A stretch of 61,455 nt of DNA from positions 1-61,455 of the forward strand of contig CAZLRK010000003.1 of the NCBI GenBank assembly GCA_964561845.1, given 5' to 3'. Below the pieces are notes generated by a model. It had not been told where the DNA came from, made no database searches, and saw nothing but the letters and a program-made list of their open reading frames with translations. Positions 16,129-33,717 of this stretch are shown here, one piece after another (position 1 is the first letter of the stretch; the number at the start of each line of letters is the position of its first letter). The DNA comes from an uncultured Desulfobacterales bacterium (lineage in GTDB: Bacteria > Desulfobacterota > Desulfobacteria > Desulfobacterales > JAUVVS01). Made by a program: the position numbers and the translations under genes.

Positions 16129-19100
16129 AGTTTGAAGAGATAAGAAACAAGGCAATGGTGGAATGGGAAGAATTCGTACTAAAGGATCGAGCTGCAATCC
16201 TTATAGGCGCGGGTACGTGCGGACGAGCTGCGGGCGCACTGGAGGTATTTTCTGCCTTTCAAAGCGAATTGGACAAAAGATCCCTGTCTGACAGGTGCAA
16301 GCTTGTAGCGGTAGGATGCCTGGGGCTATGTTATGCAGAACCGTTGGTGGAGATAAAGGATGAACAGGGAAGGCGCATACTTTATCAAGGCGTAGATCAG
16401 GAAACGGTACCCCAGTTGATTGAATCTCATCTGGGAAAAGGAGAGCCTGTATTGTCAAAGGCTATGGCAGTAATGGAGGGCCAGCCTCTTAATGGTATTC
16501 CGCTTTTTAACGATCTGCCAATGATGCGTCATCAGTTTAGGATTGCGCTTAATAACTGTGGCCAGATTGATCCCACCAATATAAATCACTACATTGCCAG
16601 GGGAGGATACTCTTCTCTGGATCGTGTCCTTTCAATGAACCCTGAAGATGTTATCGACATGGTTGAGACATCACTTTTACGAGGTCGCGGTGGAGCCGGC
16701 TTCCCGACCGGTACCAAATGGCGGTTTTGTCGAAATGCCCCCGGAGATATTCGATATTTGATATGTAATGGAGACGAGGGCGATCCGGGCGCCTTCATGG
16801 ATCGCAGTATCATGGAGGGCGATCCTCATGCAATCATAGAGGGTATGCTGATTGGCGCTTTTGCAATGGATGCAAAGGAAGGAGCCCTTTATGTGCGGGG
16901 TGAGTATCCACTGGCAATCGAGCACCTGAACCAGGCGCTTAACGATGCCAGGGAAATGGGAATATTGGGTAAGAATGTGATGGGCACGGATTTTAACTTT
17001 GAGTTGCACATTGTTCGTAACGCGGGGGCCTTCGTTTCAGGTGAGGAAACAGCTCTTTTGCGTTCGGTGGAAGGAAGTGTTGCTGAGCCAAGGCCTCGAC
17101 CTCCTTTTCCTGCCCAATCAGGTCTTTATGGCCAACCTACATGTATAAACAACGTGGAGACTTGGGCCAATGTCCCTATTATTGTTAAAAAAGGTCCTGA
17201 CTGGTTTAAAAATGTTGGTGTGGAAAAGAATGGGGGAACCAAGTTGTTCAGCCTGGCAGGCAAGGTTAAAAACACGGGCCTGGTTGAGATACCCATGGGA
17301 ACTAGCGTGCGTGATGTTGTCTTCGAAGTTGGCGGCGGCATTCTGGGGGATAATCCCATTAAGGCCGTACAGACCGGAGGTCCATCAGGCGGGTGCATAC
17401 CGGAATCTATGTTAGACTTGCCTTTGACTTACGAGGGTCTAGTAGAAGCAGGGACTATTATGGGATCAGGTGGTATGATTGTTATGGACAGTGAGACATG
17501 CATGGTAGACATAGCTCGGTTCTTCCTGGAGTTTACCACGAAAGAGTCCTGCGGAAAGTGTACACCCTGTCGGGAAGGAACCGAAAAAATGCTTGAAATC
17601 ATGGAACGAATCTGCGCAGGCGAAGCCGAGGAGGATGACATCGCTCTCCTGGAGCGACTTGCTAATGGCGTAGCCGCTACATCGCTGTGCGGTTTGGGCC
17701 AAACCGCTCCGAACCCGGCAAAATCAACCTTGAAATATTTTAAGGAAGAATACCTTGCCCATATAAGGGATAAATATTGCCCTGCAGGCGTTTGCAAAAA
17801 ACTGGTACCGGGTCATTGTCAGAAGGCATGTCCGGCCGGCATTGATGTTCCCAGTTATGTAGCATTAATTGCACATGGGAGGTTTGAAGAGGCTGTTAGG
17901 GTTATTCGCGAGGACAATCCATTCCCCTGGGTCTGTGGCCTTGTTTGCCCAGCTCCATGCGAAAAAGAATGTGAAAGGGGAACGGTGGATAAGCCAATCA
18001 GTATTAGGGTACTTAAAGCCTTTGCGAGTAAATATGTCATGGAAAATCTTGGGAGCTATAAAACCGCCATTAAGACGAAACGGGACGACAAGATCGCCAT
18101 CATAGGTTCAGGACCTGCCGGGCTATCTGCGGCCTACTATCTTGCTATGGAGGGATATAAAATAACTGTCTTTGAAGCCCTTCCAAAAGCGGGTGGAATG
18201 CTGCGTGTGGGTATCCCACCCCATCGTTTGCCGAAAAGTATCCTGGATAAGGAAATAGAAAGCTTTTCAAACCTGGGTATAGAGATAAAAACAAACACAC
18301 CTCTTGGTCCGGACATGACCCTGGAAAACCTCTTTGATCAGAGATTTAAAGCTGTTTATCTTTGCATTGGCGCCCATAAACCCATGCCGCTTCGTATAAA
18401 AGGTGAAGACTCAAACGAAGTGATGCAAGGAGTTACATATCTTAAGAAGTTAAACCTGGGCGAACCCGTTCCTCAAGGAAATAAAGTTGTTGTCATAGGC
18501 GGAGGGAATGTAGCCGTCGATGTTGCGAGATCTGCTGTAAGAAAAGGAGCAGCCAATGTGACGATCTTGTATCGAAGAACTCGTAGAGAAATGCCTGCCT
18601 ATGATACGGAGATCGAAGAGGCCCTTGAAGAAGGTATCAATATAACCTTTCTGTCCGCGCCCGAAGAGATATTGGTAAAAAATAACAAGGTTACAGGGCT
18701 AAGATGTATTAAGATGGAGTTGGGGAAGCCGGATGCTTCAGGGCGCCGCAGGCCGGTTCCTGTTGCCGATTCGCAATATGAAATGGAAGCAGACCTTGTT
18801 TTTCCTGCTATAGGGCAGATCCCTGATACAACCCATTTGAAAGAGATTGAAGGTCTTGAGATGATTAAAGGGGGCACAATTAAGGTAGACCATGAGACCT
18901 TTGCCACAACAGTAAAAGGAGTATTTGCGGGAGGAGATGCGGTAACCGGTCCCGCTACTGTTATTGAAGCCATTTCTGGGGGAAAGAAAGCGGCTCTTTA
19001 CATAGATGCTTTTATTCAAGGAGAAGAAAAACCAAGAAAACCACCGGTGCCTGTAAGAAGAATGAATGTTGAAAAGTTTGAAGTAAGTGAAGAAAAGATG

Positions 19101-19238
19101 GAAAAATTGAAGCGCCCTGAAATTCCCTTACTTCCGATTAAAAAAAGAAAAACAACATTCAAGCAGGTGGAGCTTGGCTTCACAGAAAAGATCGCCTGTG
19201 ATGAGGCCCAGAGATGCCTTCGTTGTGATTTGAGCTGA
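16125..19238 (+). CDS. NuoF/HydB-like FMN/NADH subunit fused to a GltD/NfnB-like FAD/NAD(P)H domain
   Basis: LRGRGGAGFPTG, NGDEGDPGAFMDR, SCGKCTPCREG, SLCGLG; then CQKACPAG..CGLVCPAPCE, GSGPAG, GGGNVA..YRR, RCLRCD. Confidence 0.9.
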   Translation: MKFEEIRNKAMVEWEEFVLKDRAAILIGAGTCGRAAGALEVFSAFQSELDKRSLSDRCKLVAVGCLGLCYAEPLVEIKDEQGRRILYQGVDQETVPQLIESHLGKGEPVLSKAMAVMEGQPLNGIPLFNDLPMMRHQFRIALNNCGQIDPTNINHYIARGGYSSLDRVLSMNPEDVIDMVETSLLRGRGGAGFPTGTKWRFCRNAPGDIRYLICNGDEGDPGAFMDRSIMEGDPHAIIEGMLIGAFAMDAKEGALYVRGEYPLAIEHLNQALNDAREMGILGKNVMGTDFNFELHIVRNAGAFVSGEETALLRSVEGSVAEPRPRPPFPAQSGLYGQPTCINNVETWANVPIIVKKGPDWFKNVGVEKNGGTKLFSLAGKVKNTGLVEIPMGTSVRDVVFEVGGGILGDNPIKAVQTGGPSGGCIPESMLDLPLTYEGLVEAGTIMGSGGMIVMDSETCMVDIARFFLEFTTKESCGKCTPCREGTEKMLEIMERICAGEAEEDDIALLERLANGVAATSLCGLGQTAPNPAKSTLKYFKEEYLAHIRDKYCPAGVCKKLVPGHCQKACPAGIDVPSYVALIAHGRFEEAVRVIREDNPFPWVCGLVCPAPCEKECERGTVDKPISIRVLKAFASKYVMENLGSYKTAIKTKRDDKIAIIGSGPAGLSAAYYLAMEGYKITVFEALPKAGGMLRVGIPPHRLPKSILDKEIESFSNLGIEIKTNTPLGPDMTLENLFDQRFKAVYLCIGAHKPMPLRIKGEDSNEVMQGVTYLKKLNLGEPVPQGNKVVVIGGGNVAVDVARSAVRKGAANVTILYRRTRREMPAYDTEIEEALEEGINITFLSAPEEILVKNNKVTGLRCIKMELGKPDASGRRRPVPVADSQYEMEADLVFPAIGQIPDTTHLKEIEGLEMIKGGTIKVDHETFATTVKGVFAGGDAVTGPATVIEAISGGKKAALYIDAFIQGEEKPRKPPVPVRRMNVEKFEVSEEKMEKLKRPEIPLLPIKKRKTTFKQVELGFTEKIACDEAQRCLRCDLS

Positions 19239-19269
19239 TGGTTTAAAGCTCTAAGAAGGCAAGAGACAG

Positions 19270-19545
19270 GTAATATTTTATCTGTTTGGAAACAAAGTAG
19301 CTTCAAAGGTAATTAAATTTTAAACCGTGTAAAACTCGCGCATAAGTGAGTGTAAAGAAAGAACAGTGCATGTCTTTTAAATAAAACATCTAAGTTATAA
19401 ATGCCGATTAGCCATTAAAACGCATAATGCAAGCCCCTGTTCTTTCTTAACGCTCACTAATACGCTCAGACAGTTACACGGTTAAAAATTAAACAACCTT
19501 TGAAGCTTGCTAGTTCTAATTTTTTTCATAAGGCTAAAATGTTAC
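19270..19545. mobile_element. MITE-like family A copy 2 (276 bp)
   Basis: Near-identical to 11384-11653; 8-bp direct repeat AGAGACAG (19262-19269, 19546-19553). Confidence 0.88.
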
Positions 19546-19579
19546 AGAGACAGAAGTTTTACAGAGAGAGGAGTTATTG

Positions 19580-21394
19580 ATGAATAAGGAAAACATTACA
19601 CTTACCATCGACGGCAATGAGGTGGAGGTGGAGCAGGGCCAGACCCTGCTGACGGCTGCAAAAAAGCTGGGAATCTGGATCCCGACCCTGTGTCATCACG
19701 ATGCTCTGGGACCCCAAGGCGCTTGTCGGCTTTGTCTTGTAGAAGTTGAGATCCAGGGGCGGCGACGTCTGATGGCCAGTTGTGCCTATCCCGTATCCGA
19801 GGGACTCAAGGTTTTTACTGATACGGAAAACGTAATCGAAAATCGCAAGATCGTAGCTGAACTCCTGCTTGCTCGTTGCAGTGAAAACGAGCAAATAAAG
19901 GAATTGTGTGCAAAAATGGGTGTCACTGACACACCTTTTACCAAGAAAAAAGAAGACTGTGTCCTTTGTGGACAGTGTGTACGAATGTGTAACGAAAGAA
20001 TGAAGGTAGGCGCCATAAACTTTATGGGCAGGGGCCAGACACGGAAAGTCGGTACCCCCTATGAAGAGTATTCTGACATATGCCGGACATGTGGCGCATG
20101 CGAGACTGTTTGCCCGACGGGCTGTATCGACGTCCGTGATTCATCAAAGATCGAGCCAAAGCCTCTTACTTCTGATTGGGATGTTGGACTTAAAAAAAGG
20201 TCAGCCGCCTATATTCCGTTTCCACAGGCGGTTCCTCTCTCTTCTGTTATTGATCCCAAGGCCTGTGCGCATGTCCTTACGGATAACTGCGGTGTTTGCA
20301 GGGAATTTTGTGAGGCCGACGCTATTGATTTCGATCAGAAAGAGGAAATTATTGAAATTGATGTGGGCTCGATCATTCTGGCTACAGGGTTTGATTTAAT
20401 GGACCCGGCTCCCATGAAGCAGTTTGGCTATGGCAAGTTTCCCAATGTTTTTACAAGTCTCGAGTTCGAGCGGCTTAGCAATGCAACAGGTCCCACCGGG
20501 GGCAATATTCTAATCAGAGACGAAAACGGCGAACTTACAAAGTCCCCTGAAAGCGTAGCTATTCTCCACTGCATCGGCAGCAGGGATGTGAATTATCATG
20601 AATACTGCTCACGCGTCTGCTGTATGTATGCACTTAAGTATACCCATCTTATCAAGGAAAAGGTCGGGCATGATACTGCTGTCTATGATTTTTATATTGA
20701 TCAGCGTTGCTACGGAAAGGGGTATGAAGAATTTTACGAACGATGCCAGCGGGAAGGAACCACATTCGTTAGGGGTAAAGTAGCTGAAATTACCGACCAG
20801 GCCATTGAGCAAAAAGAGGAAGGCAAGCTTATTGCCATTGCTGAAGACACGCTTTTGGGTATTCGACTACGTGTGCCGGTAGATATGGTGGTCCTGTGTG
20901 CCGCCATAGAGGCTCGCAAGAGCGCCATTGAGGTAGGAAGAATATTCGGTGTTAATCTGGGAGCAGACGGCTTTTTCCTTGAGGAGCATCCTAAGTTAGG
21001 GCCATTAAATACAGCCACGGACGGAGTTTTTCTGGCCGGTGCATGCCAATCTCCTAAGGATATACCAGATACCGTCGCCCAGGCTTCAGGCGCCGCGGCT
21101 AAAGCCCTTTCTTTGGCCGCTCGAGGAAAAGTAGAAGTTCCGTCGACAATCTCTTGGATAGATCCGAATATTTGTGCAGGGTGTCAGACCTGTATTGAAC
21201 TTTGTGCCTACTCTGCAATAGATTTTGACGAACGAAGAGGTGTGTCTGTGATAAACGAGGCTGTCTGCAAAGGGTGCGGGAGTTGCAGCGGATTTTGCCC
21301 CAGTGGCGCGGCCCAGGTTAAACATTTCAAAAAGAAACAAATATTTTCAGAATTCGACGGAATTATTGATGCATTGAATGCCGTGGGAATGTAA
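19580..21394 (+). CDS. hdrA: NuoG/HydA N-terminal Fe-S domains fused to the HdrA C-terminal half
   Basis: IPTLC..GACRLCLVEV..ASC [2Fe-2S], CVLCGQC and CRTCGAC; then AYIPFPQAVP, IILATG, LEFERL, HCIGSRD..YCSRVCCMY, GACQSPKDIP and a C-terminal 2[4Fe-4S] domain. Confidence 0.88.
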   Translation: MNKENITLTIDGNEVEVEQGQTLLTAAKKLGIWIPTLCHHDALGPQGACRLCLVEVEIQGRRRLMASCAYPVSEGLKVFTDTENVIENRKIVAELLLARCSENEQIKELCAKMGVTDTPFTKKKEDCVLCGQCVRMCNERMKVGAINFMGRGQTRKVGTPYEEYSDICRTCGACETVCPTGCIDVRDSSKIEPKPLTSDWDVGLKKRSAAYIPFPQAVPLSSVIDPKACAHVLTDNCGVCREFCEADAIDFDQKEEIIEIDVGSIILATGFDLMDPAPMKQFGYGKFPNVFTSLEFERLSNATGPTGGNILIRDENGELTKSPESVAILHCIGSRDVNYHEYCSRVCCMYALKYTHLIKEKVGHDTAVYDFYIDQRCYGKGYEEFYERCQREGTTFVRGKVAEITDQAIEQKEEGKLIAIAEDTLLGIRLRVPVDMVVLCAAIEARKSAIEVGRIFGVNLGADGFFLEEHPKLGPLNTATDGVFLAGACQSPKDIPDTVAQASGAAAKALSLAARGKVEVPSTISWIDPNICAGCQTCIELCAYSAIDFDERRGVSVINEAVCKGCGSCSGFCPSGAAQVKHFKKKQIFSEFDGIIDALNAVGM

Positions 21395-22211: not shown

Positions 22212-23366
22212 ATGGGAATAACGGCAAAAATTGACGTAAAAGACCAGGAACTTTTAGCATCACTTCATGATTTTTTCAGATCTATCCTTGAGTTGGAAGA
22301 TGTCAGCGCCATTCTGACGCCGCAAAAACTCCCCATGAAAAACATGGTGATGCATACCCTTGTGACAGATCCCGAGCGCCTGAACGGAGTCGATCCACTG
22401 GCGCCGTGCTTTCCCTTAAATGTTGCCAGGGTTGTTGCAAGACTTACCCGTAAACCGATAGGAGGAAAGGTGGCGGCGGTGTTACGTCCATGCGAGATAA
22501 GGGCATTTATTGAGCTGGTTAAGCTCAAGCAGGGAACTGTCGACGATATTGTTTTGATCGGGATTGATTGTTTAGGAGCTTATCGGAATACGGATTATTT
22601 CCGGTTTGTCGGGGAAGACGTGGCCGCATCAACAGGGAGTTTTTATCAAAGTGCCCTTATGGGAAAGACCACCGTCATTGAAGATATCGATTTGGCGCCG
22701 GCCTGCAAAGCATGCGAATATCCCATCCCGACGGGCGCAGATGTTCTGATAGGACTTTTGGGCGTTGACACAAATAAACAGTTGTTGGTTCAATCACGGA
22801 CGCCAAAAGGAGAAGATTTTTTAGCGAACCTCAATCTTTCAAATACAGATGAACCTTTGAAACGCCAAGAAACTATTGATTCTTTAGTTGCCGAACATAA
22901 AGCTTACAGGGAAAATATGTTTACCAAAACCGGTAATATTATCAATAACATAGAAAAGTTGACCACATATTTTGCCAATTGTGTAAACTGTTACAACTGC
23001 AGGGTCGCCTGCCCGGTATGTTATTGCAAAGAATGCGTTTTTGTCACTGATGTTTTTAATCACGATCCTTCACAATATCTGCAGTGGTCCCGGCGCAAGG
23101 GAGCAATTAAGATGCCCACGGATACGGTCTTTTACCACATAACACGTCTGGCTCATATGAGCACGGCCTGTGTCGGGTGCGGCCAGTGTTCTAACGCTTG
23201 TCCTAATGACATCCCGGTAATGGAACTGTTCCGTACTGTGGCGCAACATACACAGAAGGCTTTTGACTATGAGGCAGGCAGAAGCCTTGAGGAAGATCCG
23301 CCTCTTTCCGTTTTCCGTGAGGATGAGTTTGAAGATGTGGTTGGAATATCTGCAAAAATTGCTTAA
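22212..23366 (+). CDS. FdhB/FrhB-like Fe-S protein
   Basis: AVLRPCEIRA, IGIDCLG, ACKAC, CVNCYNCRVACPVCYCKEC, CVGCGQCSNACP. Confidence 0.75.
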   Translation: MGITAKIDVKDQELLASLHDFFRSILELEDVSAILTPQKLPMKNMVMHTLVTDPERLNGVDPLAPCFPLNVARVVARLTRKPIGGKVAAVLRPCEIRAFIELVKLKQGTVDDIVLIGIDCLGAYRNTDYFRFVGEDVAASTGSFYQSALMGKTTVIEDIDLAPACKACEYPIPTGADVLIGLLGVDTNKQLLVQSRTPKGEDFLANLNLSNTDEPLKRQETIDSLVAEHKAYRENMFTKTGNIINNIEKLTTYFANCVNCYNCRVACPVCYCKECVFVTDVFNHDPSQYLQWSRRKGAIKMPTDTVFYHITRLAHMSTACVGCGQCSNACPNDIPVMELFRTVAQHTQKAFDYEAGRSLEEDPPLSVFREDEFEDVVGISAKIA

Positions 23367-23381: not shown

Positions 23382-24701
23382 ATGGGTGAAGTTGCAATCA
23401 AACTTGGAGGTAAAAAAAAGAGTATGTTCATTGACAGGGTTAAGGAGCTCCTTCCCGAGGGAGGGAATCTTAATCTCTGCCTGACATGTGGCGCCTGTTC
23501 TTCGGGATGTCCTGCTACGTCTCTGGATGGGATGGATCCGAGAAAATTTTTGCGCATGGCTGCACTGGGGATGGATAATGAACTCCTCAAATTGGATTGG
23601 ACCTGGATGTGCACGTTATGTCAACGCTGCAGTTATGTTTGTCCCATGAAAATTGATATTCCACAGCTTGTTTTCAATACCCGCGCATCATGGCCAAGGA
23701 AAGATCGCCCAAAGGGTATTCTTGGATCATGTGATATGGCACTGAAAAATGACAGTTGCAGTGCAATGGGCGCAGCCCCTGATGATTTTAAGTTCGTGGT
23801 GGAAGATGTTCTTGAAGAATATCAAGAAACGCAGCCTGAATTCAAAGACATGAAGGCACATGTAAATAAACAGGGGGCCAAATTTTTTCTGAACCAGAAT
23901 TCCAGAGAACCGGTAACCGAGCCGGATGAAATGGTGCCGCTCTGGAAGATTCTCAATCTTGGAGAGGCGGACTGGACATACGGAACAAAGGGTTGGGCTG
24001 CGGAAAATTATTGTATGTTTCTGGCGGACAATGAGAACTGGGAGAACATTGTGCGCATTAAGGCCAAAGCAGTGGAGGAACTTGGTTGTAAAGTCTGGCT
24101 CAATACGGAATGAGGGCACGAACTCTTTGCAGTCCGGGCCGGACTGAAAAAATTTAACATTGATTATAATTTCGAGATAAGGAGCATTATTCAGTATTAT
24201 GCACAGTGGATTCGGGAAGGAAAATTGAAAGTCAATTCAGACTGGAACAAGGACATTAAGGCTAAATTTACGGTACAGGATCCGTGCCAACTGGTGCGAA
24301 AGTCATTTGGAGATCCTGTTGCAGAAGATCTAAGATTTGCTGTTAAATCGGTGATTGGAGAAGAGAATTTTATCGACATGGTTCCCAACAAATCAAACAA
24401 TTACTGCTGCGGCGGCGGAGGGGGTTATCTTCAGTCAGGGTATACCGAGGCGCGTCGTAAATATGGCAAGATCAAGCTGGATCAGGTTCTTCAGACGGGA
24501 GCCGATTATTGCATTACGCCGTGTCACAACTGCCATGCCCAGATTCACGATATGCGTGATCATTATGGAGCAAAATTTCATACGGTTCATTTGTGGACGA
24601 TGATCTGTCTTTCTCTTGGAATACTGGGTCCCAATGAACGTGAATATCTGGGTGATGATCTCAAGGAGGTATTACCTTTTCATCCTGAATCGGCAATGTA
24701 A
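23382..24701 (+). CDS. HdrD/GlpC-like Fe-S + CCG protein with selenocysteine (UGA 24111-24113)
   Basis: ORFs 23382-24113 and 24225-24701 are in frame. Read-through gives NTE-U-GH at the conserved ECGH position. A hairpin follows the UGA; QDPC, YCCGGGGG and PCHNC motifs lie downstream. Confidence 0.88.
24114..24146 (+). promoter_or_regulatory. Putative bacterial SECIS element
   Basis: Stem CAGTCCG (24130-24136) / CGGACTG (24140-24146) with a G-rich apical loop about 24 nt after the UGA. Confidence 0.75.
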
Positions 24702-24729
24702 TAACTTATGTTAATCCATGTTAGAGTAA

Positions 24730-24974
24730 TTGCCAAAATAATGTTCCGTTACAAAGACTGTATGCAGCGTCTGGGCTTCCGAGCGAATCCATTTGGGGTC
24801 ATTTGATTCAGCGTTCTCGGTGAAGCGGAGCGTAAAAATTGAAGCTGTTTGAGTCCCGAGCTTTGCGAGGTCGAGTTCTTTAATTTTAGCTCAGCAAGCC
24901 TTAGAACGCTTCAAATGTACCCAGGAGGCGTTCGGAAGTTTAGACGTGATTCAATCGGAACATATTTATGACAA
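24730..24974. repeat. Long nested palindrome (element D)
   Basis: Successive arm pairs: aatgttccg/cggaacat, cgtctgggcttccgagcg/cgttcggaagtttagacg, catttga/tcaaatg, agcgttct/agaacgct. Confidence 0.7.
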
Positions 24975-24990
24975 CCGGTATAAAGGTTTG

Positions 24991-25252
24991 GTAACGTTCA
25001 AAAGTGTTCGTATAATTGTCTTCCAAAATAAATGGGACTCATTGAATAATCATTCGGTAATGCATATTTCCGAAAGACGATATCAATTTACCTAGTAGGA
25101 GGTGATCAAATATTTGGGATTTAACAGACAGTTTCTTTAACACTAGAGCTTATGAGGCGCAAATCCCAAATATTTGATCACTGTGAGCAATCGAGGAATT
25201 ATACAGTGATATCGTCTTTCGGAAACATCCATTACCTTCTCAGATTTAAATG
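24991..25252. mobile_element. MITE-like family B, copy lacking its right end
   Basis: Begins GTAACGTTCAAAAGTGT; about 260 bp collinear with 44510-44805. Confidence 0.8.
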
Positions 25253-25309
25253 CTACCAAACGATTACAACAACGGACAACGGACAATAACCAATAGTGGA
25301 GGAAGTTTC

Positions 25310-28300
25310 ATGAAAAGAAAGATCGGTTCGGCCGTGGTAGTGGGAGCCGGAATCAGTGGTATCCGGACTGCACTTGATCTGGCGGAAGTCGGATATGGTG
25401 TGACGATTATAGACCGGTCACCGCATCTTGGAGGGATTCTAAGTCAGCTCGATTATCAATTTCCAACGGACCGCTGCGGCATGTGTAAAATGCTTCCCCT
25501 GGTGGATCGGGATGCTTCTTCTCAGTATTGCCTTCGCAAAGGGCTTTTCCACGAAAATATAGAAATCCTTCTTTCCGCCGAACTTGTTTCAGTGGAAGGA
25601 GAACCGGGCAATTTTCAAGTCATGCTAAGGCAGAAACCGAACCTGGTTGATCCTGAACTGTGCATGGGATGTGGTGTATGCGTGGAAGTTTGTCCTGTAG
25701 AGGTCCCGGACACATTTAATGCCGGTTTGGTTTCCAGAAAGGCCATCTATCTCCCGGTTCCCCATGCTATCCCGAATCCGTACCTGATCGATTTTGCTGC
25801 GTGCACCAGATGCGGTGAGTGTGAAAAGATATGCCCCACCAATGCAATCCGACTGCTTGAAGAAGAGCGACAGAAATTTCGAATTTTGGTGGTGGACGAT
25901 GAACTGATTGTTCGTGAATCGCTAAAGGAATGGCTCGAAGAAGAAGGCTTTACAGTGGAAACTGCAGGATCCGGCACCGAGGCACTGGATAGCCTTACAG
26001 AAGGAGCGTACCACTTAATGCTCACCGATATAAAAATGCCGGGAATGGACGGCATTGAAGTGCTTCAAAAGGCCAGGGAGAATTTCCCTGACCTTACCGT
26101 AGTTATGATGACGGCCTACGCTACGGTGGAAAGCGCAGTTGAAGCGATGAAAATAGGCGCCCTTGACTATCTCATGAAACCCTTTGACCCTGACAAAATA
26201 GTAGCCATGGTACGTGGAATTTATGGAGATATAGAAGCTGCCCAAGGACGTCAACTGGAAGCGGGGGCTATAGTCTTTTGCGGCGGTACAGACTATTTCG
26301 ATCCTGCAAGCGGTAAGAACACCTTTGGTTATGGAGTATATCCCAACGTTGTAACGAGTCTGGAATTCGAAAGGATCTTTAGCGGCAGCGGTCCCAGCCA
26401 TGGCAAGTTGGTACGTCCTTTTGACGGAAAACCGATCAACAAGGTTGCGTGGATTCAGTGTGTGGGATCAAGGGATTTGCAGACCGATGCCGATTTTTGT
26501 TCAAATATATGCTGTATGTATGCCATTAAGGAAGCTCTTGTGGCAAAAGAAAAGACCGAGGGAAAATTGGACGCAACCATCTTTTATATGGACATGCGAA
26601 CCTTTGGTAAACCTTTTCAGCGTTATCGATATAAGGCAGAAAAAGAACACGGCGTTCGATTTAAACGGGGTCGTATTCATTCCGTAACTCCCGATAGTGA
26701 AACAGGGAATCTCTTAATCAGGTATGCCGATCAAAGTGGTGAAATCCATGAAGATCAACAGGACATGGTGGTCCTTTCCATAGGTCAAAGACCCGCGTCG
26801 GGAACGACAAATTTGGCCGATATGGTGGGAATCGGTCTTAGTTCCTGGGGATTTGGCGAGACAGAACCTTTCTCCCTTACCCGCACAGAAAAAGAAGGCG
26901 TAATTCTCGGCGGCGCCTTTTCCGGTCTCAAGGACATAAGTGAATCGGTAATCCAGGCTTCTGCGGCAGCGCTTTCCGCATCCCGCGTGATTCACGCCTC
27001 TGGAGGCGGCCTTGCTCCGGAACCAGCTGCTGTTCCTGAGGTAATTGACGTTTCACGCGAACTTCCGCGTATTCTGGTAGCAATTTGTACTTGTAGCGGC
27101 ACACTGTCCGAATTTATCAATTCAAAAAAAATTATATCGAATTTAAAACTTGATCCTTTTGTAGAGGAGGTCGAATTTCTGGAGCAGACATGCACCTCCA
27201 ATGGATGGGAGGCTCTTGTTGAGCTTGTGAAGAAACAGAAACCAAATCGACTTCTCGTAGGAGCCTGTCATCCCTATACTTATTCCCAAAAGCTTCACGA
27301 GTTAGGGCAGAAGGCAGGTTTATCACCTTCACTCATGGATGTTGTTGATCTCAAGCTCATCGATCATAGTTTAAAGTTCAAAGATGAAAAACCGTCACCA
27401 GATGAACTATCTGTTATCAGCAATGAGCTGTCTTCCACTTTAGCGATGGGCCTTGCCAAACTAAAACGGATTGACCCCTCTCCTGTTGACACTGTTCCGA
27501 TTCAACAGCAGGCTCTGGTGGTGGGCGGAGGCATCGCCGGTATGACCGCTGCGATGGCTATTGCAGATCACGGTTTTAATGTTGATATAGTAGAAGAGGC
27601 AGAGGAGTTGGGGGGCAACCTTAACTGGTTGCAAACAACTCTGGATGGCCATTCAACGAAGGCGCTTTTGGGCGAAACACTTTCCAGAATAGAAAAACAC
27701 CCACTGATAAAGGTTCACACCCAGTCAAGGGTGATGGGCTCCTATGGTCAGGTGGGATGCTTTTACACAACAATTGAAGGCGAAGAAGGAGATGTTTCCA
27801 ATATTGAGCATGGTGTGACAATCCTTGCAACCGGAGGCACCGAGGCAACAACTGCTTCTTATAGCTACAAAGACAGCGATCTGATAATTACACAAAAAGA
27901 GCTGGGAATAAAACTCGAAGACAACACTCTCGATTCAAGCAAACTGGAATCGGTGGTCATGATCCAATGTGTAGATTCCAGAGAGGAGCCCAGGAATTAT
28001 TGCAGCCGTGTGTGTTGTTCTTCAGCTTTAAAACATGCTCTGCACCTGAAAGAGCAGAATCCGGACATTAATATCTATATTCTTTATCGGGATATGATGG
28101 CCTATGGATTTAACGAGGCCTATTACACAAAGGCACGCAGGGCGGAAGTTATTTTCATCCAGTACAACCTGGAAAACAAACCGGATGTAAAACCAGGAGA
28201 CGAATCTGTTCAGGTGACTGTATTTGAGCCGATAATAGGAAAAAATATTGAAATAAACGCCGACATAGCGGTTCTTGCAACAGGCGTAGTTCCGAACCTT

Positions 28301-28750
28301 CCGTCATATCTGGCAGAAGCCTTTGGCGCCACGATTGATCAGGATGGTTTCTTTGAGGAAGCCGAATCGAAATGGAGACCCGTGGATGCACTCAAGGATG
28401 GTGTCTTTGCCTGTGGTTTGGCGCATTCCCCGCGTTCCATTGCCGAGGCTATAACAACAGCCGAGGCTGCCGCCCAGAGGTCTCTTAGAATTCTTTCCCG
28501 GCCGGATATGCCGGCAGGAAAAGTGGTGGCAAAAGTTCGTCACAGCATATGCAGTCTGTGTGAACGATGTATTGATGCTTGTCCCTATGGCGCACGAACA
28601 CTCGATGTTGACGAGGAAAAGGTGGAAGTCAATCCGATCATGTGTCAGGGTTGCGGTTCATGCGCTACTGTTTGCCCCAATAGTGCTTCCATTTTGGATG
28701 GATTTCATAAACAGCAGATGCTCGATGTCATAGATGCTGCGTTTTTTTAA
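25310..28750 (+). CDS. hdrA: Tandem (two-module) HdrA with an internal response-regulator receiver domain
   Basis: RBS GGAGG. Module 1: GAGISG, FPTDRCGMC, ferredoxin insert, receiver domain (ILVVDD..TDIKMPG..MTAY..MKP), QCVGSRD..CSNICCMY. Module 2: ICTC..GACHP, GGGIAG, QCVDSR..YCSRVCC and a C-terminal 2[4Fe-4S] domain. Confidence 0.9.
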   Translation: MKRKIGSAVVVGAGISGIRTALDLAEVGYGVTIIDRSPHLGGILSQLDYQFPTDRCGMCKMLPLVDRDASSQYCLRKGLFHENIEILLSAELVSVEGEPGNFQVMLRQKPNLVDPELCMGCGVCVEVCPVEVPDTFNAGLVSRKAIYLPVPHAIPNPYLIDFAACTRCGECEKICPTNAIRLLEEERQKFRILVVDDELIVRESLKEWLEEEGFTVETAGSGTEALDSLTEGAYHLMLTDIKMPGMDGIEVLQKARENFPDLTVVMMTAYATVESAVEAMKIGALDYLMKPFDPDKIVAMVRGIYGDIEAAQGRQLEAGAIVFCGGTDYFDPASGKNTFGYGVYPNVVTSLEFERIFSGSGPSHGKLVRPFDGKPINKVAWIQCVGSRDLQTDADFCSNICCMYAIKEALVAKEKTEGKLDATIFYMDMRTFGKPFQRYRYKAEKEHGVRFKRGRIHSVTPDSETGNLLIRYADQSGEIHEDQQDMVVLSIGQRPASGTTNLADMVGIGLSSWGFGETEPFSLTRTEKEGVILGGAFSGLKDISESVIQASAAALSASRVIHASGGGLAPEPAAVPEVIDVSRELPRILVAICTCSGTLSEFINSKKIISNLKLDPFVEEVEFLEQTCTSNGWEALVELVKKQKPNRLLVGACHPYTYSQKLHELGQKAGLSPSLMDVVDLKLIDHSLKFKDEKPSPDELSVISNELSSTLAMGLAKLKRIDPSPVDTVPIQQQALVVGGGIAGMTAAMAIADHGFNVDIVEEAEELGGNLNWLQTTLDGHSTKALLGETLSRIEKHPLIKVHTQSRVMGSYGQVGCFYTTIEGEEGDVSNIEHGVTILATGGTEATTASYSYKDSDLIITQKELGIKLEDNTLDSSKLESVVMIQCVDSREEPRNYCSRVCCSSALKHALHLKEQNPDINIYILYRDMMAYGFNEAYYTKARRAEVIFIQYNLENKPDVKPGDESVQVTVFEPIIGKNIEINADIAVLATGVVPNLPSYLAEAFGATIDQDGFFEEAESKWRPVDALKDGVFACGLAHSPRSIAEAITTAEAAAQRSLRILSRPDMPAGKVVAKVRHSICSLCERCIDACPYGARTLDVDEEKVEVNPIMCQGCGSCATVCPNSASILDGFHKQQMLDVIDAAFF

Positions 28751-28776
28751 GAGTATTACAATAAAGGAGCTACTTA

Positions 28777-29355
28777 ATGAATCAAACGGCCATAAAAGAA
28801 ACGGGAACAGCAACTGTAGAAGAGATGTCGATTCCAGATCCCATGGCGCCGATCAAGGAGATGGTCCAGGCATGCATCCAGTGCGGAACCTGTACAGGCT
28901 CCTGTCCCAATGCATTTGCCATGGATCAAACCCCACGTAAAATGTGGCGTATGGTTTTGTTGGGACAAAAAGATGCTATTTTTTGCAGTAAGACCTTTAT
29001 TTTGTGTTCTTCCTGTTATTATTGCACCCTACGGTGTCCCCGTGGCCTGCCACTTACAGAGGCAATGGGAGCGCTCAAACAGATTGCTTCCAGGGAAAAC
29101 CTGGCGCAATACAGGCAGAGTACGCTTTTTTATAAAAAATTCATGGATAGCGTGCGCCGCCATGGCAAGGTGAGAGAAATGGAATTCATGAGCCTTTACT
29201 TTGTATCCATGAGAAACCCCTTTATTCCCTTGCGATTTGCCCCCCTTGGGATGAAGCTTATGACAAAGGGAAAGATTTCCATACAGTTTCCTTCAAAAAG
29301 AAAGGCCCCGTTAGAGCAGATCTTCCGCAAGGTCGAAGAAATGGAGGGAGGATAA
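28777..29355 (+). CDS. hdrC: Heterodisulfide reductase subunit C-like
   Basis: CIQCGTCTGSCP and CSSCYYCTLRCPRG. Confidence 0.9.
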   Translation: MNQTAIKETGTATVEEMSIPDPMAPIKEMVQACIQCGTCTGSCPNAFAMDQTPRKMWRMVLLGQKDAIFCSKTFILCSSCYYCTLRCPRGLPLTEAMGALKQIASRENLAQYRQSTLFYKKFMDSVRRHGKVREMEFMSLYFVSMRNPFIPLRFAPLGMKLMTKGKISIQFPSKRKAPLEQIFRKVEEMEGG

Positions 29356-29357
29356 AA

Positions 29358-30221
29358 ATGAAGTACCTATACTATCCAGGTTGCTCCCTGGAAGGGACGG
29401 CCCGGGAATACGATATTTCTACCCGCGCTTTGATGCAATTAGCAGGTACGGATTTGCTTGAATTAAGGGATTGGAACTGTTGCGGCGCAACTGCAGCCGA
29501 GCCCACCAGCTTTCTTCTTTCCCTTGTCCTTCCGGCTCGAAACCTCGCCATAGCCGAAGAGATGAACGATGTCCAAGACATCCTGGTACCATGCAGCGCA
29601 TGCTATTTGAACCTTAAAAAAGTAGAAGAAAAAACAAAAAAGGAGCCAGATATTTTTGCTAAAATCAATACTATTTTACTCGAAGATAAGCTCGAGTATA
29701 AAGGCAAGATACGGGTGAGACATCTACTGGATGTTATAATCAATGATATTGGCCCGGAAACCATCCGCCCCCTTGTGAAAAAGCAGCTTAACGGCTTTGT
29801 CATCGTGCCTTACTATGGATGTCAATGCCTGCGTCCTTACCCTGTATTTGATGATCCTGAAGACCCGCACTCCATGGAACCGATAATTGATAGCATTGGA
29901 GCAACTGTTCGCCCCTGGAACATGGGTGGAAAATGCTGCGGCGCATCCCACATGAATACCAAAATGGAGGTTGGGATAGAACTTGTGACCGCCATATTGA
30001 AGGCGGCAAAAGGAGCGGACGCTATCGTAACGGTCTGTCCCATGTGCCAGATGAATCTGGAGGCTTACCAGAAGAAGATATCCAGTCTGTCAAATGAAGA
30101 CCTCAACATATCAATCCTCTATCTTCCACAGCTTATAGGTCTGGCCCTTGGGATAGCGAAACAGGAGCTTGGGATAGATTTGAACCTCTCCGTAACCGAT
30201 AAATTCCTGAAGAAATTTTAG
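29358..30221 (+). CDS. hdrB: Heterodisulfide reductase subunit B-like
   Basis: YYPGCSL, WNCCGA, PCSAC, YYGC, KCCGA, VCPMCQMNL (two CCG domains). Confidence 0.92.
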   Translation: MKYLYYPGCSLEGTAREYDISTRALMQLAGTDLLELRDWNCCGATAAEPTSFLLSLVLPARNLAIAEEMNDVQDILVPCSACYLNLKKVEEKTKKEPDIFAKINTILLEDKLEYKGKIRVRHLLDVIINDIGPETIRPLVKKQLNGFVIVPYYGCQCLRPYPVFDDPEDPHSMEPIIDSIGATVRPWNMGGKCCGASHMNTKMEVGIELVTAILKAAKGADAIVTVCPMCQMNLEAYQKKISSLSNEDLNISILYLPQLIGLALGIAKQELGIDLNLSVTDKFLKKF

Positions 30222-30272: not shown

Positions 30273-32561
30273 ATGTTAAAACACCTGAAAAATCTTCGCC
30301 ATCGCCTTGTTGCAAAACTTATCCTCACCGTGGGATTTGTCTTACTCTTCCTCGTATCAACCTGGGCCTATTTCAACATTAATTACCAAAAAGAAAAAAT
30401 GATGCAAAATATTACTGCCGGCATCGACAGATTAACCAATACCATCAAGCTAGGCACCCATTATGCAATGATGCTTAATTCAAGGGATGACATAAACCAG
30501 ATCATCAACAATATCGGCAAACAGAGAGAACTCGAGAACATTCGTATTTATAATAAAGAAGGGCAAATAAAATTTTCAAATAAGCCTGCTGAAGTCGACA
30601 TGATCACCAATATTAAGGCAGAGGCCTGTGATATCTGTCACAGAACCGATCCGCCCCTGACAGAGCTTGAGTTAAGTGAAAGAACACGGATATTTAATTC
30701 CACAAAAGGGCATCGACTGCTTGGGATTATCAGTCCTGTTTACAATGAAACAGGTTGTTCAGCGGATGACTGCCATGTTCATCCCGAGGGGAAAAAGATT
30801 TTAGGCGCCCTTGATGTTGTTGTTTCCCTTGAAACAACAGATAGAGAAATCGTTCAAGCTGAAAAAGGAATCGTAGGGTTGGCTGTTTTTGTGTTCCTGG
30901 TAACATCAACAATTATTTTTATTTTTGTGTTAAGATTCGTGAACCGGCCCATAAAGAGATTGATAAAAAGAACAAAGCTTATAGCAAAGGGTGAATATAT
31001 TATTGAAGAAGGTATTGGCCAGAGCGATGAAATAGGTGAGCTGTCTGTTGCCATTAGCAAGATGGGCAAAGAGATCGGGGAAAAACAGACCGAATTAAAC
31101 AGGCAGAGAAATGAATATCAGGATCTTTTCGAACACGTACCATGCTTAATCACGGTTCAGGACAGAAACTATAAAATTATCAGGTATAATCGAGAATTTG
31201 CCGAAAAGTTTAAACCGGAACCGGGAGATTACTGCTACAGCGCTTATAAGGGCCGTGAGGAAAAGTGCCCGATTTGCCCGGTTGAAAAAACATTCAAAGA
31301 CGGCAAGTCCCATTTCAGCGAAGAGAAGGGCTTTACCAAAGATGGAACTGTAACGCATTGGATTGTAAACACTTCTCCAATTAAGAATGCAAAAGGCGAA
31401 ATCGTTGCCGCCATGGAGGTAAATCTTGATATAACGCACAGGAAGCAGCTTGAAGAAGATCTGGAGAAATCAGAAAAGAAATATCATGCCATTTTCAATA
31501 ATATACCAAACCCTGTCTTTGTTTTGGACACGGACTCCCTTGAGATACTTGATTGTAACGAAAGTGTGAAAACCATTTACGGCTATGCCAAAGATGAGAC
31601 CATTGGCGAATCCTTTCTGGAGCTATTTGCGGAAGAAGAAAAAGACACATATGATTCAAAGATAAAAACATCTGCGGTTATCAACCAGGCAAAACATGTC
31701 AGCAAAGCCGGTGAAACTCTTTTTGTTAATATCAGGGTTTCACCTTCCGAATATCCCGGAAAGAAGGTTCTCCTTGTTACAACCAGTGACATCACAAAGC
31801 GGCTTGAGACCGAACAACAGCTTATACAGGCCAGTAAAATGGCAACCCTGGGTGAGATGGCTACCGGAGTGGCACACGAATTGAATCAACCTCTTTCGGT
31901 CATTAAAACGGCCAGCAGTTTTTTTATGAAAAAGATCCATATAAAGGAAAAAATCGAAAACAACATTCTTGATATCATGCTAACCAAAGTTGACAACAAT
32001 GTGGATCGTGCCACAAAAATTATTAATCACATGCGGGAATTTGCACGCAAGTCCGATATAAAGTTGTCAAAAATACAGCTTAATGAGGTATTGAAAAGCG
32101 CTTTTGAAATATTCAGCCAGCAACTGAGAGTTAGAGGGATTGAAGTAATATGGGACATTCAGGATGATTTGCCTAAGATAATGGCTGATCCCAGCCGCCT
32201 GGAACAGGTCTTTATCAATCTTTTGTTAAATGCAAGGGATGCTATTGAAGAAAAATGGGCATCTGAAAAACATATTGATGGAGATAAAAAGATTACGCTT
32301 AAGACTATATTCGACGGGGAGTATATAATTTGCAAGATATGTGATTCAGGCAAGGGAATTCCAAAGGCCATTTCAAATAAGATATTTGAGCCTTTTTTTA
32401 CGACTAAGGAAGTGGGTAAAGGAACCGGCCTTGGTCTTTCCATCAGCTATGGTATTATAAAGGAATGTCGAGGGAATATCGAGGTTAAAACTGATAATGA
32501 CGAAGGAACCTGTTTTGTTATAAAATTTCCTGTTCGGGATATAAAAGATGAGCCGCTCTAA
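30273..32561 (+). CDS. Membrane histidine kinase with a periplasmic c-type haem-motif domain, HAMP and two PAS domains
   Basis: Two TM helices enclosing CDICH and CSADDCH; HAMP (DEIGEL); PAS domains; HELNQP H-box; G boxes. Confidence 0.9.
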   Translation: MLKHLKNLRHRLVAKLILTVGFVLLFLVSTWAYFNINYQKEKMMQNITAGIDRLTNTIKLGTHYAMMLNSRDDINQIINNIGKQRELENIRIYNKEGQIKFSNKPAEVDMITNIKAEACDICHRTDPPLTELELSERTRIFNSTKGHRLLGIISPVYNETGCSADDCHVHPEGKKILGALDVVVSLETTDREIVQAEKGIVGLAVFVFLVTSTIIFIFVLRFVNRPIKRLIKRTKLIAKGEYIIEEGIGQSDEIGELSVAISKMGKEIGEKQTELNRQRNEYQDLFEHVPCLITVQDRNYKIIRYNREFAEKFKPEPGDYCYSAYKGREEKCPICPVEKTFKDGKSHFSEEKGFTKDGTVTHWIVNTSPIKNAKGEIVAAMEVNLDITHRKQLEEDLEKSEKKYHAIFNNIPNPVFVLDTDSLEILDCNESVKTIYGYAKDETIGESFLELFAEEEKDTYDSKIKTSAVINQAKHVSKAGETLFVNIRVSPSEYPGKKVLLVTTSDITKRLETEQQLIQASKMATLGEMATGVAHELNQPLSVIKTASSFFMKKIHIKEKIENNILDIMLTKVDNNVDRATKIINHMREFARKSDIKLSKIQLNEVLKSAFEIFSQQLRVRGIEVIWDIQDDLPKIMADPSRLEQVFINLLLNARDAIEEKWASEKHIDGDKKITLKTIFDGEYIICKICDSGKGIPKAISNKIFEPFFTTKEVGKGTGLGLSISYGIIKECRGNIEVKTDNDEGTCFVIKFPVRDIKDEPL

Positions 32562-33717
32562 TAATAAAGATAAAATATTACTGGTTGATGATGAAGACGA
32601 TATCCGGGAGGTTTTGAGCATATCTTTGTACGATATGGGATATAACGTGTTTGCAACCGAAAATGGAGAGGAAGCCCTGCGCATTTTTAAAGAGGTTAAT
32701 CCTTTAATCGTACTTACGGACATAAAGATGCCGGGTATGGATGGAATCGAGCTACTTCGAAGGATTAAACATGAAAACCCGGATACCGAGGTCGTAATGA
32801 TTACCGGCCATGGAGATATGAACCTGGCTGTAAAAAGCCTCAAATATGAGGCAACTGATTTTATCACCAAGCCAATCAGCGTTGATGCCCTGGGAATCGC
32901 ACTTAGAAGGGCCCATGATAAAATTATAATGAAAAAGAAATTAAGGGAATACACTCAAAACCTTGAGGCAATAGTTCGTGAAAAGAGTGAGTTGCAGGAT
33001 CGTCTTTCATCATTGGGTTTTATGATCGGTTCCATTTCACATAGCATAAAAGGACTGCTGACAGGATTAGACGGCGGGATGTACTTGCTTGATTCCGGTT
33101 TTGCAAAAGAGAACCAGGACAGGATTAAAGAAGGATGGGGAGTTGTAAAATTTATTGTTGATCGCATACGAAAAATGGTCCTTGACATCCTTTTTTATGC
33201 AAAGGAGAGGGAGCTGAAATGGGAGCAGATCGATGTTTTAAGTTTTGCTAATGAGGTTGCTTTGATTATTGAACCTAAGGCGCAAAATCAACATGTTGAA
33301 TTTGTATATGATTTTGATTCATCGCCGGGAAAGTTTGAGATCGATTCAGGCTTTCTCCATTCAGCGCTCATTAATATTCTAGAAAATGCTGTTGATGCAT
33401 GTATAAAAGATAAATTAAAAAAATTGCATAAAGTAATCTTTAATGTAACTCATGACAGAGATCACATTATATTTGATGTCATTGATAATGGCATAGGAAT
33501 GGATAATGAAACAAAGGAAAAAATATTTACGCTTTTCTTCTCATCAAAAGGAGACAAGGGGACAGGTCTGGGTCTCTTTATCTCAAACAATATAATTAAA
33601 CAACACGGCGGTGAAATAAAAGTACAATCAACGCTTTGGCAGGGATCAAAATTTAGTATAAAGATTCCAAAGATAATCCCGAAGTCAGCTAAAACCCCTT
33701 ATAGTGAAAAGAAATAG
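32548..33717 (+). CDS. Hybrid REC-histidine kinase
   Basis: ILLVDDE..TDIKMPG..ITGH..TKP; SHSIKG H-box; NILENA, DNGIGM, GTGLGL. Confidence 0.9.
   Translation: MSRSNNKDKILLVDDEDDIREVLSISLYDMGYNVFATENGEEALRIFKEVNPLIVLTDIKMPGMDGIELLRRIKHENPDTEVVMITGHGDMNLAVKSLKYEATDFITKPISVDALGIALRRAHDKIIMKKKLREYTQNLEAIVREKSELQDRLSSLGFMIGSISHSIKGLLTGLDGGMYLLDSGFAKENQDRIKEGWGVVKFIVDRIRKMVLDILFYAKERELKWEQIDVLSFANEVALIIEPKAQNQHVEFVYDFDSSPGKFEIDSGFLHSALINILENAVDACIKDKLKKLHKVIFNVTHDRDHIIFDVIDNGIGMDNETKEKIFTLFFSSKGDKGTGLGLFISNNIIKQHGGEIKVQSTLWQGSKFSIKIPKIIPKSAKTPYSEKK

Follow-up and report, generated by a model that had tools for sequence, protein, structure and literature searches.

We analysed 61,455 nucleotides (nt) of DNA from an uncultured Desulfobacterales bacterium (assembly GCA_964561845.1, contig CAZLRK010000003.1, positions 1 to 61,455 of the forward strand; hereafter the window) and found that it encodes a tandem HdrA, i.e., two fused modules related to the flavin subunit of heterodisulfide reductases (Hdr), within which a receiver domain of the response-regulator type is nested. 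The open frame spans 25250 to 28750 and passes without interruption through the receiver and back into HdrA, which resumes at LEAGAIVFCGG, as had been described in an earlier reading of the same DNA from its letters (the sequence-only reading). The receiver has a complete catalytic site, recurs at the same point in relatives from many genomes, and is typically encoded next to a membrane-bound histidine kinase. We hold with moderate confidence that it acts as a phosphorylation-controlled switch on the HdrA-like enzyme, one that is genuine, maintained by selection and was inserted once.

A receiver domain nested in an asymmetric double HdrA

The gene and its parts are listed below, with the matching residues of the solved HdrA 5odc_A (Methanothermococcus thermolithotrophicus) where the two proteins align.

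25310..28750, + strand: receiver-bearing tandem HdrA-like gene (frame open from 25250, 1166 amino acids, aa; likely start ATG 25310)
25328..25633, + strand: module 1, first part of the flavin adenine dinucleotide (FAD) domain, thioredoxin-reductase-like, with GxGxxG and the CGMC pair (Pfam Pyr_redox/DAO from aa 28; 5odc_A 145-237)
25634..25861, + strand: module 1, inserted ferredoxin domain, with CxxCxxCxxxCP at 25661-25696 and 25802-25837 (Fer4 matches; 5odc_A 237-312)
25862..26251, + strand: inserted receiver (REC) with short linkers (Pfam core 25883-26215; HdrA alignment; AlphaFold2)
26027..26029, + strand: codon of the predicted phospho-acceptor Asp260, in LTDIKMPG (Asp in 121/121 sequences)
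26252..26983, + strand: module 1, remainder of the FAD domain (5odc_A 318-562; no C-terminal ferredoxin domain of its own)
27056..27409, + strand: module 2, segment resembling the HdrA N-terminal domain (HdrA ~2-100; limits approximate; phmmer to 5odc_A 2-100, E 0.0018; also 8rvu_a)
27485..28747, + strand: module 2, FAD domain and C-terminal 2[4Fe-4S] ferredoxin domain (the latter at 28529-28684; FAD signature from aa 755; 4Fe-4S dicluster)

The true start is likely ATG 25310 (M21 of the open frame), at which the database copy P0002 (1146 aa) also begins and which has a GGAGG 7 nt upstream. The insert matches Pfam Response_reg (PF00072) over the whole profile (1-111 of 111) at aa 212-322, nt 25883-26215, with an E-value of 9.3e-33 and 113.2 bits against a cut-off of 30.2. 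The five residues of a receiver active site, i.e., the acidic pair, the phospho-accepting Asp, a Thr or Ser and a Lys, are all present, and the domain is thus not a pseudo-receiver: D216 and D217 (nt 25895-25900), D260, T288 (nt 26111-26113, in MMTAY) and K310, followed by P311 (nt 26177-26182), with Y307 at the aromatic switch position. The DD pocket, the Asp of TDIKMPG, the Thr of MTAY and the Lys-Pro of MKP that the sequence-only reading had picked out are all present in this full-length receiver.

The AlphaFold2 model (input a 119-row alignment; mean predicted local distance difference test score, pLDDT, 86.7; predicted template modelling score 0.86) folds the insert, residues 191-310 of P0002, in the regular order of five strands and five helices, from b1-a1 to b5-a5, with a pLDDT of about 76-91 over the receiver block. 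Only ~3 residues separate helix 5 from the next HdrA strand in this prediction. With helix limits taken from the model, helices alpha1 and alpha4 are nearly invariant in the 119 rows and alpha5 is variable. Near-invariance of alpha1 (kinase docking) and alpha4 (output), as against the variable alpha5, fits a receiver that would both receive and transmit a signal.

The insertion point is precise. Counting from M21, residues 7-184 align with residues 145-312 of 5odc_A and residues 315-558 with 318-562, so that a receiver of ~130 aa substitutes for five HdrA residues, 313-317. The second CxxCxxCxxxCP motif (nt 25802-25837) immediately precedes the site, at which the chain passes from the inserted ferredoxin domain back into the FAD domain; the placement of the receiver directly behind the inserted 2[4Fe-4S] ferredoxin domain of module 1, made earlier without any structure at hand, agrees with this alignment.

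The host protein is a double HdrA in which the modules have lost different parts. A thioredoxin-reductase-like FAD domain is present in each. Module 1 has the sole inserted ferredoxin domain and the Cys pair (CGMC in FPTDRCGMCK, equivalent to Cys194 and Cys197 of HdrA; C56 and C59 are invariant in the 119 rows) and lacks the N-terminal and the C-terminal ferredoxin domains. Module 2 lacks both the inserted ferredoxin domain and the Cys194/197 pair. The N-terminal domain and Cys197 thus occur once each, split between the modules, with the N-terminal-domain match weak on its own (E 0.0018) and part of a longer stretch that matches 8rvu_a 9-244 at 3e-16. We dropped an MvhD-like assignment of the segment between the modules, in which no Pfam family was found at E<=0.001 and which phmmer aligns to the HdrA N-terminal domain. 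The best Foldseek matches of the whole protein are the HdrA chains of solved Hdr complexes (8rvy_A, 1.8e-46; 5odc_A, 4.5e-45; 7bkd_A, 3.2e-42), and phmmer matches it to 5odc_A at 1e-99. We call it HdrA-like because its scores stay below the NCBIfam equivalog cut-offs for methanogen HdrA and HdrA2 (658.4 against 1100, 541 against 1300 and 527.4 against 1400). HdrB- and HdrC-like genes are its neighbours here and in 27/33 other loci, and it may work with their products in flavin-based electron bifurcation.

The fusion is real and widespread in Desulfobacterales

The window comes from a metagenome-type assembly of 412 contigs and a repeat lies just upstream of the gene, which could favour an artefact, with a response-regulator gene fused to hdrA by faulty assembly or gene calling. 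Yet separately assembled per-run contigs bridge both junctions without any difference (X1, 1529 nt, over 25209-26737; X5, 8670 nt, over 25209-29000; the runs that yielded them may be the source samples), and the identical junction is found in 89 other genomes of the order and in the 120 database clusters listed. As far as sequence data reach, the artefact is refuted, and we give it a negligible probability. The sequence-only reading had also considered that the fusion might be exclusive to this assembly, or that homologues might have lost the Asp. Neither is the case, given these genomes and contigs, and given that the Asp is kept in all 121 sequences and in 32/36 loci.

The 120 listed database relatives are 70-100% identical to the window protein over a junction region of 291 aa and all have the insert. 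The D-D-D-T-K quintet is complete in 121/121 sequences (the query and its 120 best database relatives) and in 32 of the 36 independent loci. These relatives go under the names 'response regulator', 'FAD-dependent oxidoreductase' or 'heterodisulfide reductase subunit A', and their named carriers include Desulfobacterales, Desulfobacteraceae, Desulfosarcinaceae, Desulfococcaceae, Desulfobacula, Desulfosalsimonas and Syntrophobacterales metagenome-assembled genomes (MAGs). Among the 150 best-matching representatives of a 50%-identity library, 14 cover both junctions in one aligned stretch. The junction was present in 89 of 200 other genomes sampled from the order of the window, several of them in 1-3 contigs; with the window's genome included, this corresponds to 71/148 high-quality genomes and 66/126 genera. 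A separate sample of 400 genomes across the phylum had it in 10.

The locus counts refer to 36 loci besides the window, 29 of them from an 80-locus set (L019-L041, L043, L045-L048 and L050). We left out partial loci at contig ends (L042, L044), the loci L049 and L051-L098, which match the receiver alone or HdrA alone or, in the case of L086, L091, L094, L095 and L098, the junction region but no receiver, and duplicates (L104, L107 and L108, of L032, L035 and L033). A neighbour was counted only where the available flank sufficed: at least 1.5 kb upstream for FdhB, at least 5 kb upstream for NuoG and NuoE, at least 2 kb downstream for HdrC and HdrB, and at least 5 kb downstream for the kinases.

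A single origin and a subclade of degenerate receivers

The window's genome has a single receiver junction, and in nine other HdrA-like loci of the same genome the ferredoxin part is joined straight to the next part of HdrA. Receiver-less tandem HdrAs of ~1018 aa also exist elsewhere (e.g., L095). The trees are quick IQ-TREE runs with Shimodaira-Hasegawa-like approximate likelihood ratio test (SH-aLRT) support only, restricted to proteins of more than 1100 aa and therefore without L019 and L040. When the receiver columns were removed, the 35 receiver-bearing proteins formed one clade on a long stem (SH-aLRT 100), and eight receiver-less tandem HdrAs, four of them paralogues from the window's genome, fell outside it. 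A tree that retained the receiver columns agrees with the single clade. These phylogenies indicate a single insertion of the receiver, into a tandem HdrA that already existed.

Among solved receivers, those of the NtrC, FixJ and Spo0F types come closest (1dc7 at 3.4e-21), and the best curated models are TIGR01818 ntrC and AtoC (1.6e-27). Within the genome, the nearest receiver (50% identity) belongs to a sigma-54 (NtrC-type) activator encoded at 2328-3671 of the window. The likeness to the NtrC family ends with the receiver: Pfam found neither an AAA+ sigma-54 interaction domain nor a helix-turn-helix output in the window protein.

The 31 canonical proteins have as their sister clade four loci of Desulfovibrionales type with degenerate receivers: L045 (Desulfocurvus), L046 (Desulfovibrionaceae), L047 (Desulfohalobiaceae) and L099. 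Their inserts are still recognised as Response_reg, at 28-37 bits, and the quintets read T-P-D-A-R in L045, A-D-D-G-K in L046, H-P-A-C-W in L047 and T-P-D-A-K in L099; two members of the 50%-clustered library, P0143 and P0149, resemble them. None of the four loci (0/4) has orthologues of the neighbouring kinase or hybrid described below. Pseudo-receivers are a known class (PMC12632262), and the four proteins are like them in keeping the fold and losing the active-site set; the window copy differs in retaining all five residues.

Relatives of the inserted receiver occur in other host proteins. In L022 (14842-16173, - strand), a Usp-REC-Usp protein with a receiver 71% identical to that of HdrA is encoded just downstream of hdrB, in a locus without the usual kinase orthologue. 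A 442-aa frame in another genome (G436:C17) has a receiver with 66% identity. In L049 (9935-11533), a REC-HisKA-HATPase protein has a second receiver, which shares 71% identity with that of HdrA, nested in HATPase_c; this arrangement is either real or an assembly chimera.

In three of the receiver-less tandem paralogues in the window's own genome (G000, contigs C89, C106 and C18), an in-frame TGA coincides exactly with the Cys197 position (TNDC-x-x-TGA), where the receiver-bearing HdrA has Cys. The HdrA of Methanococcus has selenocysteine at this position (U197; PMC13518236), which the TGA codons match. In a complete-looking genome (G458:C1:2022293-2023165), a receiver-HdrA junction itself has one in-frame TGA, and the open frame around the receiver has only 435 aa; this copy may be a selenocysteine form or a broken one.

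Kinases encoded next to the receiver-bearing HdrA

Two signalling genes lie downstream.

30273..32561, + strand: sensor histidine kinase (PAS, PAS, HisKA, HATPase), with an orthologue of 55-68% identity downstream in 21/26 canonical loci
32548..33717, + strand: receiver-histidine kinase hybrid (REC, a coiled segment with SISHS, HATPase), overlapping the kinase gene by 14 nt, with an orthologue in 21/26 canonical loci

At least one of the two is found downstream in 23 of the 26 canonical loci. The transmembrane helices of the kinase (~aa 12-32 and 199-224) flank a domain with the motifs CDICH (30627-30641) and CSADDCH (30756-30776), and all 19 full-length orthologues (19/19) have a CxxCH and a second Cx3-4CH between their membrane helices. 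From these Cys-His motifs, the periplasmic domain may be a putative haem-c-type redox sensor. Across genomes, the sensor region (a query of the first 280 kinase residues, E<=1e-30) was found in 75/89 genomes with the fusion and in 26/111 without it.

Operon context

The order of genes over the 36 loci is NuoE-like, NuoF/GltD-like, NuoG/HdrA-like, FdhB/FrhB-like, sometimes HdrD-like, receiver-HdrA, HdrC, HdrB, sensor kinase and receiver-kinase hybrid. In the window, the genes around the receiver-bearing HdrA other than the kinases are the following.

14776..21394, + strand: NuoE-like, NuoF-plus-GltD-like and NuoG/HdrA-like genes (Pfam; conserved upstream)
22212..23366, + strand: FrhB/FdhB-like iron-sulfur flavoprotein subunit (PF04432; upstream in 32/32 loci)
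23382..24701, + strand: HdrD-like protein (HdrC+HdrB-type) whose frame runs across a TGA at 24111-24113 (same-frame open reading frames; Fer4_8, CCG)
28777..29355, + strand: HdrC-like subunit (Fer4_17; TIGR03290 at 2e-21, under cut-off; downstream in 27/33 loci)
29358..30221, + strand: HdrB-like subunit with two CCG domains (PF02754 in two stretches; TIGR03288 at 2.6e-50, under cut-off; 27/33 loci)

Upstream conservation is high, with NuoG-like genes in 28/29 loci and NuoE-like genes in 27/29. HdrCB is not downstream in the remaining 6/33 loci (L019, L020, L023, L027, L030 and L041), where the kinase genes directly follow the receiver-HdrA, and two of these six carry an HdrD-like gene upstream instead. 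From this variation, the thiol-reducing module seems interchangeable. The window protein is predicted from these neighbours to be the core of a conserved complex of NuoEFG-like, FdhB-like, HdrA-A' and HdrCB (or HdrD) subunits.

Several features of the surrounding DNA deserve mention. The NuoF-like protein (1037 aa) is fused to a GltD-like FAD/NAD domain and, by description only, resembles the HdrL of Desulfobacterium autotrophicum HRM2, a fusion of heterodisulfide reductase and glutamate synthase. The HdrD-like protein is made of a Fer4-type frame (23382-24113) and a CCG-type frame (24225-24701) that share one frame and are joined by a single TGA, and a 7-bp GC-rich hairpin begins 19 nt after that codon; it probably contains selenocysteine at the TGA, as judged from the sequence. 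No Rfam match was found on 24000-25400. The repeat upstream of hdrA is a 200-bp palindromic element, resembling a miniature inverted-repeat transposable element, at 25050-25250 (immediately before the hdrA start) and again at 44568-44768. It has at least 40 full-length copies in the genome, 90-94% identical, and in metagenome runs it has very high depth and breaks contigs.

A putative phosphorylation-controlled switch and its alternatives

How might such a switch work? In receivers with the CheY-like fold, the N- and C-termini lie close together, opposite the active site. By analogy, this fold would be well suited to insertion into another domain, with the Asp left accessible. In the mechanism that we propose, the co-encoded membrane kinase would sense something outside the cytoplasm, for which its CxxCH and Cx3-4CH motifs suggest haem c and hence the redox state. 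Phosphate would pass from the kinase to Asp260, either directly or through the adjacent receiver-kinase hybrid. The Thr288/Tyr307 switch would then alter the alpha4-beta5-alpha5 face, so that the ferredoxin-exit domain, or a neighbouring module, would be repositioned or dock differently. The complex could in this way pass more or fewer electrons without new transcription. Direct switching by two-component phosphorylation had been put forward in the sequence-only reading, and it is backed indirectly by the conserved quintet and helices alpha1 and alpha4, by the kinase pair next to the gene in most canonical loci, by the co-occurrence of kinase and fusion across genomes, and by the lack of such kinases (0/4) beside the degenerate receivers. 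Low-potential electrons exit HdrA via the inserted ferredoxin domain (PMC9012536; PMC13518236), and Hdr is gated by domain movements (PMC13518236). A change in the receiver would be expected to affect electron flow or partner docking because very short linkers tether it at the hinge of the sole ferredoxin-exit domain. More tentatively, and with clearly less confidence than in the switch itself, we suggest that a membrane kinase, whose periplasmic sensor of the haem-c type would read the redox state outside the cell, directly gates a cytoplasmic, flavin-based bifurcating or confurcating Hdr-like complex through this hinge receiver in about half of the Desulfobacterales genomes sampled, and that the same receiver subtype, in the Usp-REC-Usp protein and in the kinase ATPase domain, maybe answers to the same kinase.

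Several observations weigh against a phosphorylation switch driven by the neighbouring kinase. The kinase is neither obligatory for the fusion nor exclusive to it: 14/89 fusion-positive genomes have no match to the sensor region at E<=1e-30, 26 genomes have the kinase without the fusion, 3/26 canonical loci are without either kinase in the vicinity, and another two have the hybrid alone, on the opposite strand. The Fisher p for the co-occurrence is overstated since related genomes are not independent. The sensor assignment is similarly soft, with a Pfam match to Mcp40H-20_sensor under the cut-off (25.8 against 27), haem binding read from the motifs, and no meaningful homologue of the sensor domain when phmmer was run against solved structures (best E 0.53). 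The association between degenerate receivers and absent kinases counts once, because the four degenerate loci form one clade and represent one evolutionary event; this pseudo-receiver subclade, which keeps the domain without the phospho-chemistry, may imply that at least part of the role is structural. Two genomes of the same genus as the window's (95% and 65% complete) are without the fusion. The AlphaFold2 output holds no inter-domain geometry, and contact between the receiver and the ferredoxin or FAD domains is hence outside its reach. Finally, no RNA run was listed as containing 25500-26600.

Three other roles of the receiver have to be set against the switch. The enzyme could be the input instead of the output, with the redox or conformational state of HdrA setting how quickly its receiver is phosphorylated or dephosphorylated and thereby draining or sparing phosphate for the receiver of the hybrid, as a phosphate sink (an alternative that the sequence-only reading had also named) or redox reporter. 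That one sensor kinase has two receivers beside it, that of HdrA and that of the hybrid, both with the TDIKMPGMDG loop, would suit such a role, as would the genomes with the kinase and no fusion, in which the kinase must have other targets, and the 71%-identical receivers carried by other hosts near such operons (Usp-REC-Usp in L022, the kinase ATPase domain in L049). However, a sink needs neither a precise, invariant insertion point nor a near-invariant alpha4 output face, and the pseudo-receiver clade retains the domain where a sink is impossible. We regard this role as improbable. Phosphorylation could instead control assembly, the receiver dimerising through its alpha4-beta5-alpha5 face or docking a partner there (the NuoEFG-like input, the FdhB-like subunit or a second complex), so that the signal would determine the kind of complex formed. 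NtrC-type receivers act by altering oligomeric contacts, and the insert is closest to NtrC, FixJ and Spo0F among solved receivers and to an NtrC-type receiver within the genome; alpha4 is highly conserved, and the operon has alternative thiol modules (HdrCB missing in 6/33 loci, HdrD in some). The interface is nevertheless purely hypothetical, and nothing separates this possibility from the switch that we favour; we rate it as no likelier than the sink.

The receiver might, at the other extreme, be a structural spacer or scaffold, its catalytic residues kept in Desulfobacterales by recent common descent and not by use. A whole subclade does keep the fold with degenerate residues. But the canonical clade extends down to ~55% identity in the junction region and through many families of the order, and the quintet is nonetheless kept in 121/121 sequences and in 32/32 canonical loci. 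Dedicated kinases are retained next door, and the loss of residues, where it occurs, affects several at once, as would follow from an end to selection on the phospho-chemistry. A purely structural role thus seems to us distinctly less probable than either the sink or the control of assembly.

Comparison with known systems

The HdrA of the methanogen HdrABC-MvhAGD and of related complexes (5odc, 7bkb, 8rvu/8rvy, 9sfi) is like the window protein in having an FAD domain with an inserted 2[4Fe-4S] ferredoxin domain, and HdrC- and HdrB-like genes are adjacent here too; the window protein differs in having a receiver in place of residues 313-317 and two fused modules that each miss parts. Since the window enzyme belongs to a bacterium, the methanogen substrate CoM-S-S-CoB (the heterodisulfide of coenzymes M and B) is unlikely for it. 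Fused HdrAs whose modules have lost complementary domains, in anaerobic methanotrophic (ANME) archaea and in the Moorella MetFV-HdrABC-MvhD, are thought to form asymmetric pseudo-heterodimers (PMC9012536). They too have two modules per chain with a complementary N-terminal FeS domain and Cys197, but the order is reversed in the window, where the first module has Cys197 and the second the N-terminal domain, and the passages that describe them mention no signalling domain. In the ANME-1 HdrA, the inserted ferredoxin domain is itself interrupted by an NfnB-like one (PMC9012536, legend of S8 Fig). Tandem HdrAs in MAGs labelled Myxococcota or Desulfobulbaceae (L086, L098 and L091) have extra ferredoxin-type Cys motifs at the site of the receiver. 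The same region of HdrA thus takes large insertions, and from these sequences it appears to be an insertion hot spot; the other inserts are redox domains, whereas that of the window is a cofactor-free domain of two-component signalling.

Receivers are covalently joined to enzymes in CheB, PleD/WspR and RpfG, where the receiver is N-terminal and the output is a signalling enzyme. They share with the window protein an enzyme-linked receiver, presumably with phospho-switching, and differ in that the window receiver is nested within a domain that is itself inserted in a flavoenzyme of energy metabolism. Two-component systems have been tied to Hdr-like genes of sulfate reducers, as in Desulfovibrio vulgaris, where DVU2394 regulates the adh/hdr operon (PMC3333781); DVU2394 is a DNA-binding regulator that acts on transcription, in contrast to a receiver that is part of the enzyme. 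Also comparable is locus VIII of D. autotrophicum HRM2, with hdrL/hdrA4-hdrC-hdrB, fdhB, hdrD2, a response regulator and a histidine kinase (PMC2702500), which, compared by description only, has the same gene content and order as the window. The passages on this locus do not mention a receiver within HdrA4, although its supplementary Fig. S3 and Table S4 (Pfam domains) may show one.

A full-text search of open-access papers and bioRxiv found no published description of a receiver in HdrA, and in the main text of a survey of HdrA domain architectures in 501 sequences (bioRxiv 10.1101/2024.09.26.615249) the terms 'response regulator' and 'receiver' do not occur. Within this literature, the earlier statement that no characterised example was known is borne out. 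The architecture is in the databases under automatic names and, as far as searched, is otherwise uncharacterised. What is new is, on one side, a response regulator with a nested bioenergetic output and, on the other, an HdrA-like enzyme with a signalling insert.

Significance for the energy metabolism of sulfate reducers

To our knowledge, how electron-bifurcating enzymes are regulated on short time scales is largely unknown. For Hdr, control has been described as conformational gating within the complex (PMC13518236) or as transcriptional (PMC3333781). If the receiver is a phosphorylatable switch at the low-potential exit, it would add a new layer of control. Were the kinase to gate the complex directly, two-component control at the post-translational level would for the first time be known for a core energy-converting redox enzyme. 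Nested insertion in a redox enzyme would likewise join the list of known response-regulator outputs. The subclade of pseudo-receivers without kinases offers a natural comparison group for the canonical proteins. Desulfobacterales dominate marine sulfate reduction, and ~45% of the genomes sampled from the order encode a member of the family.

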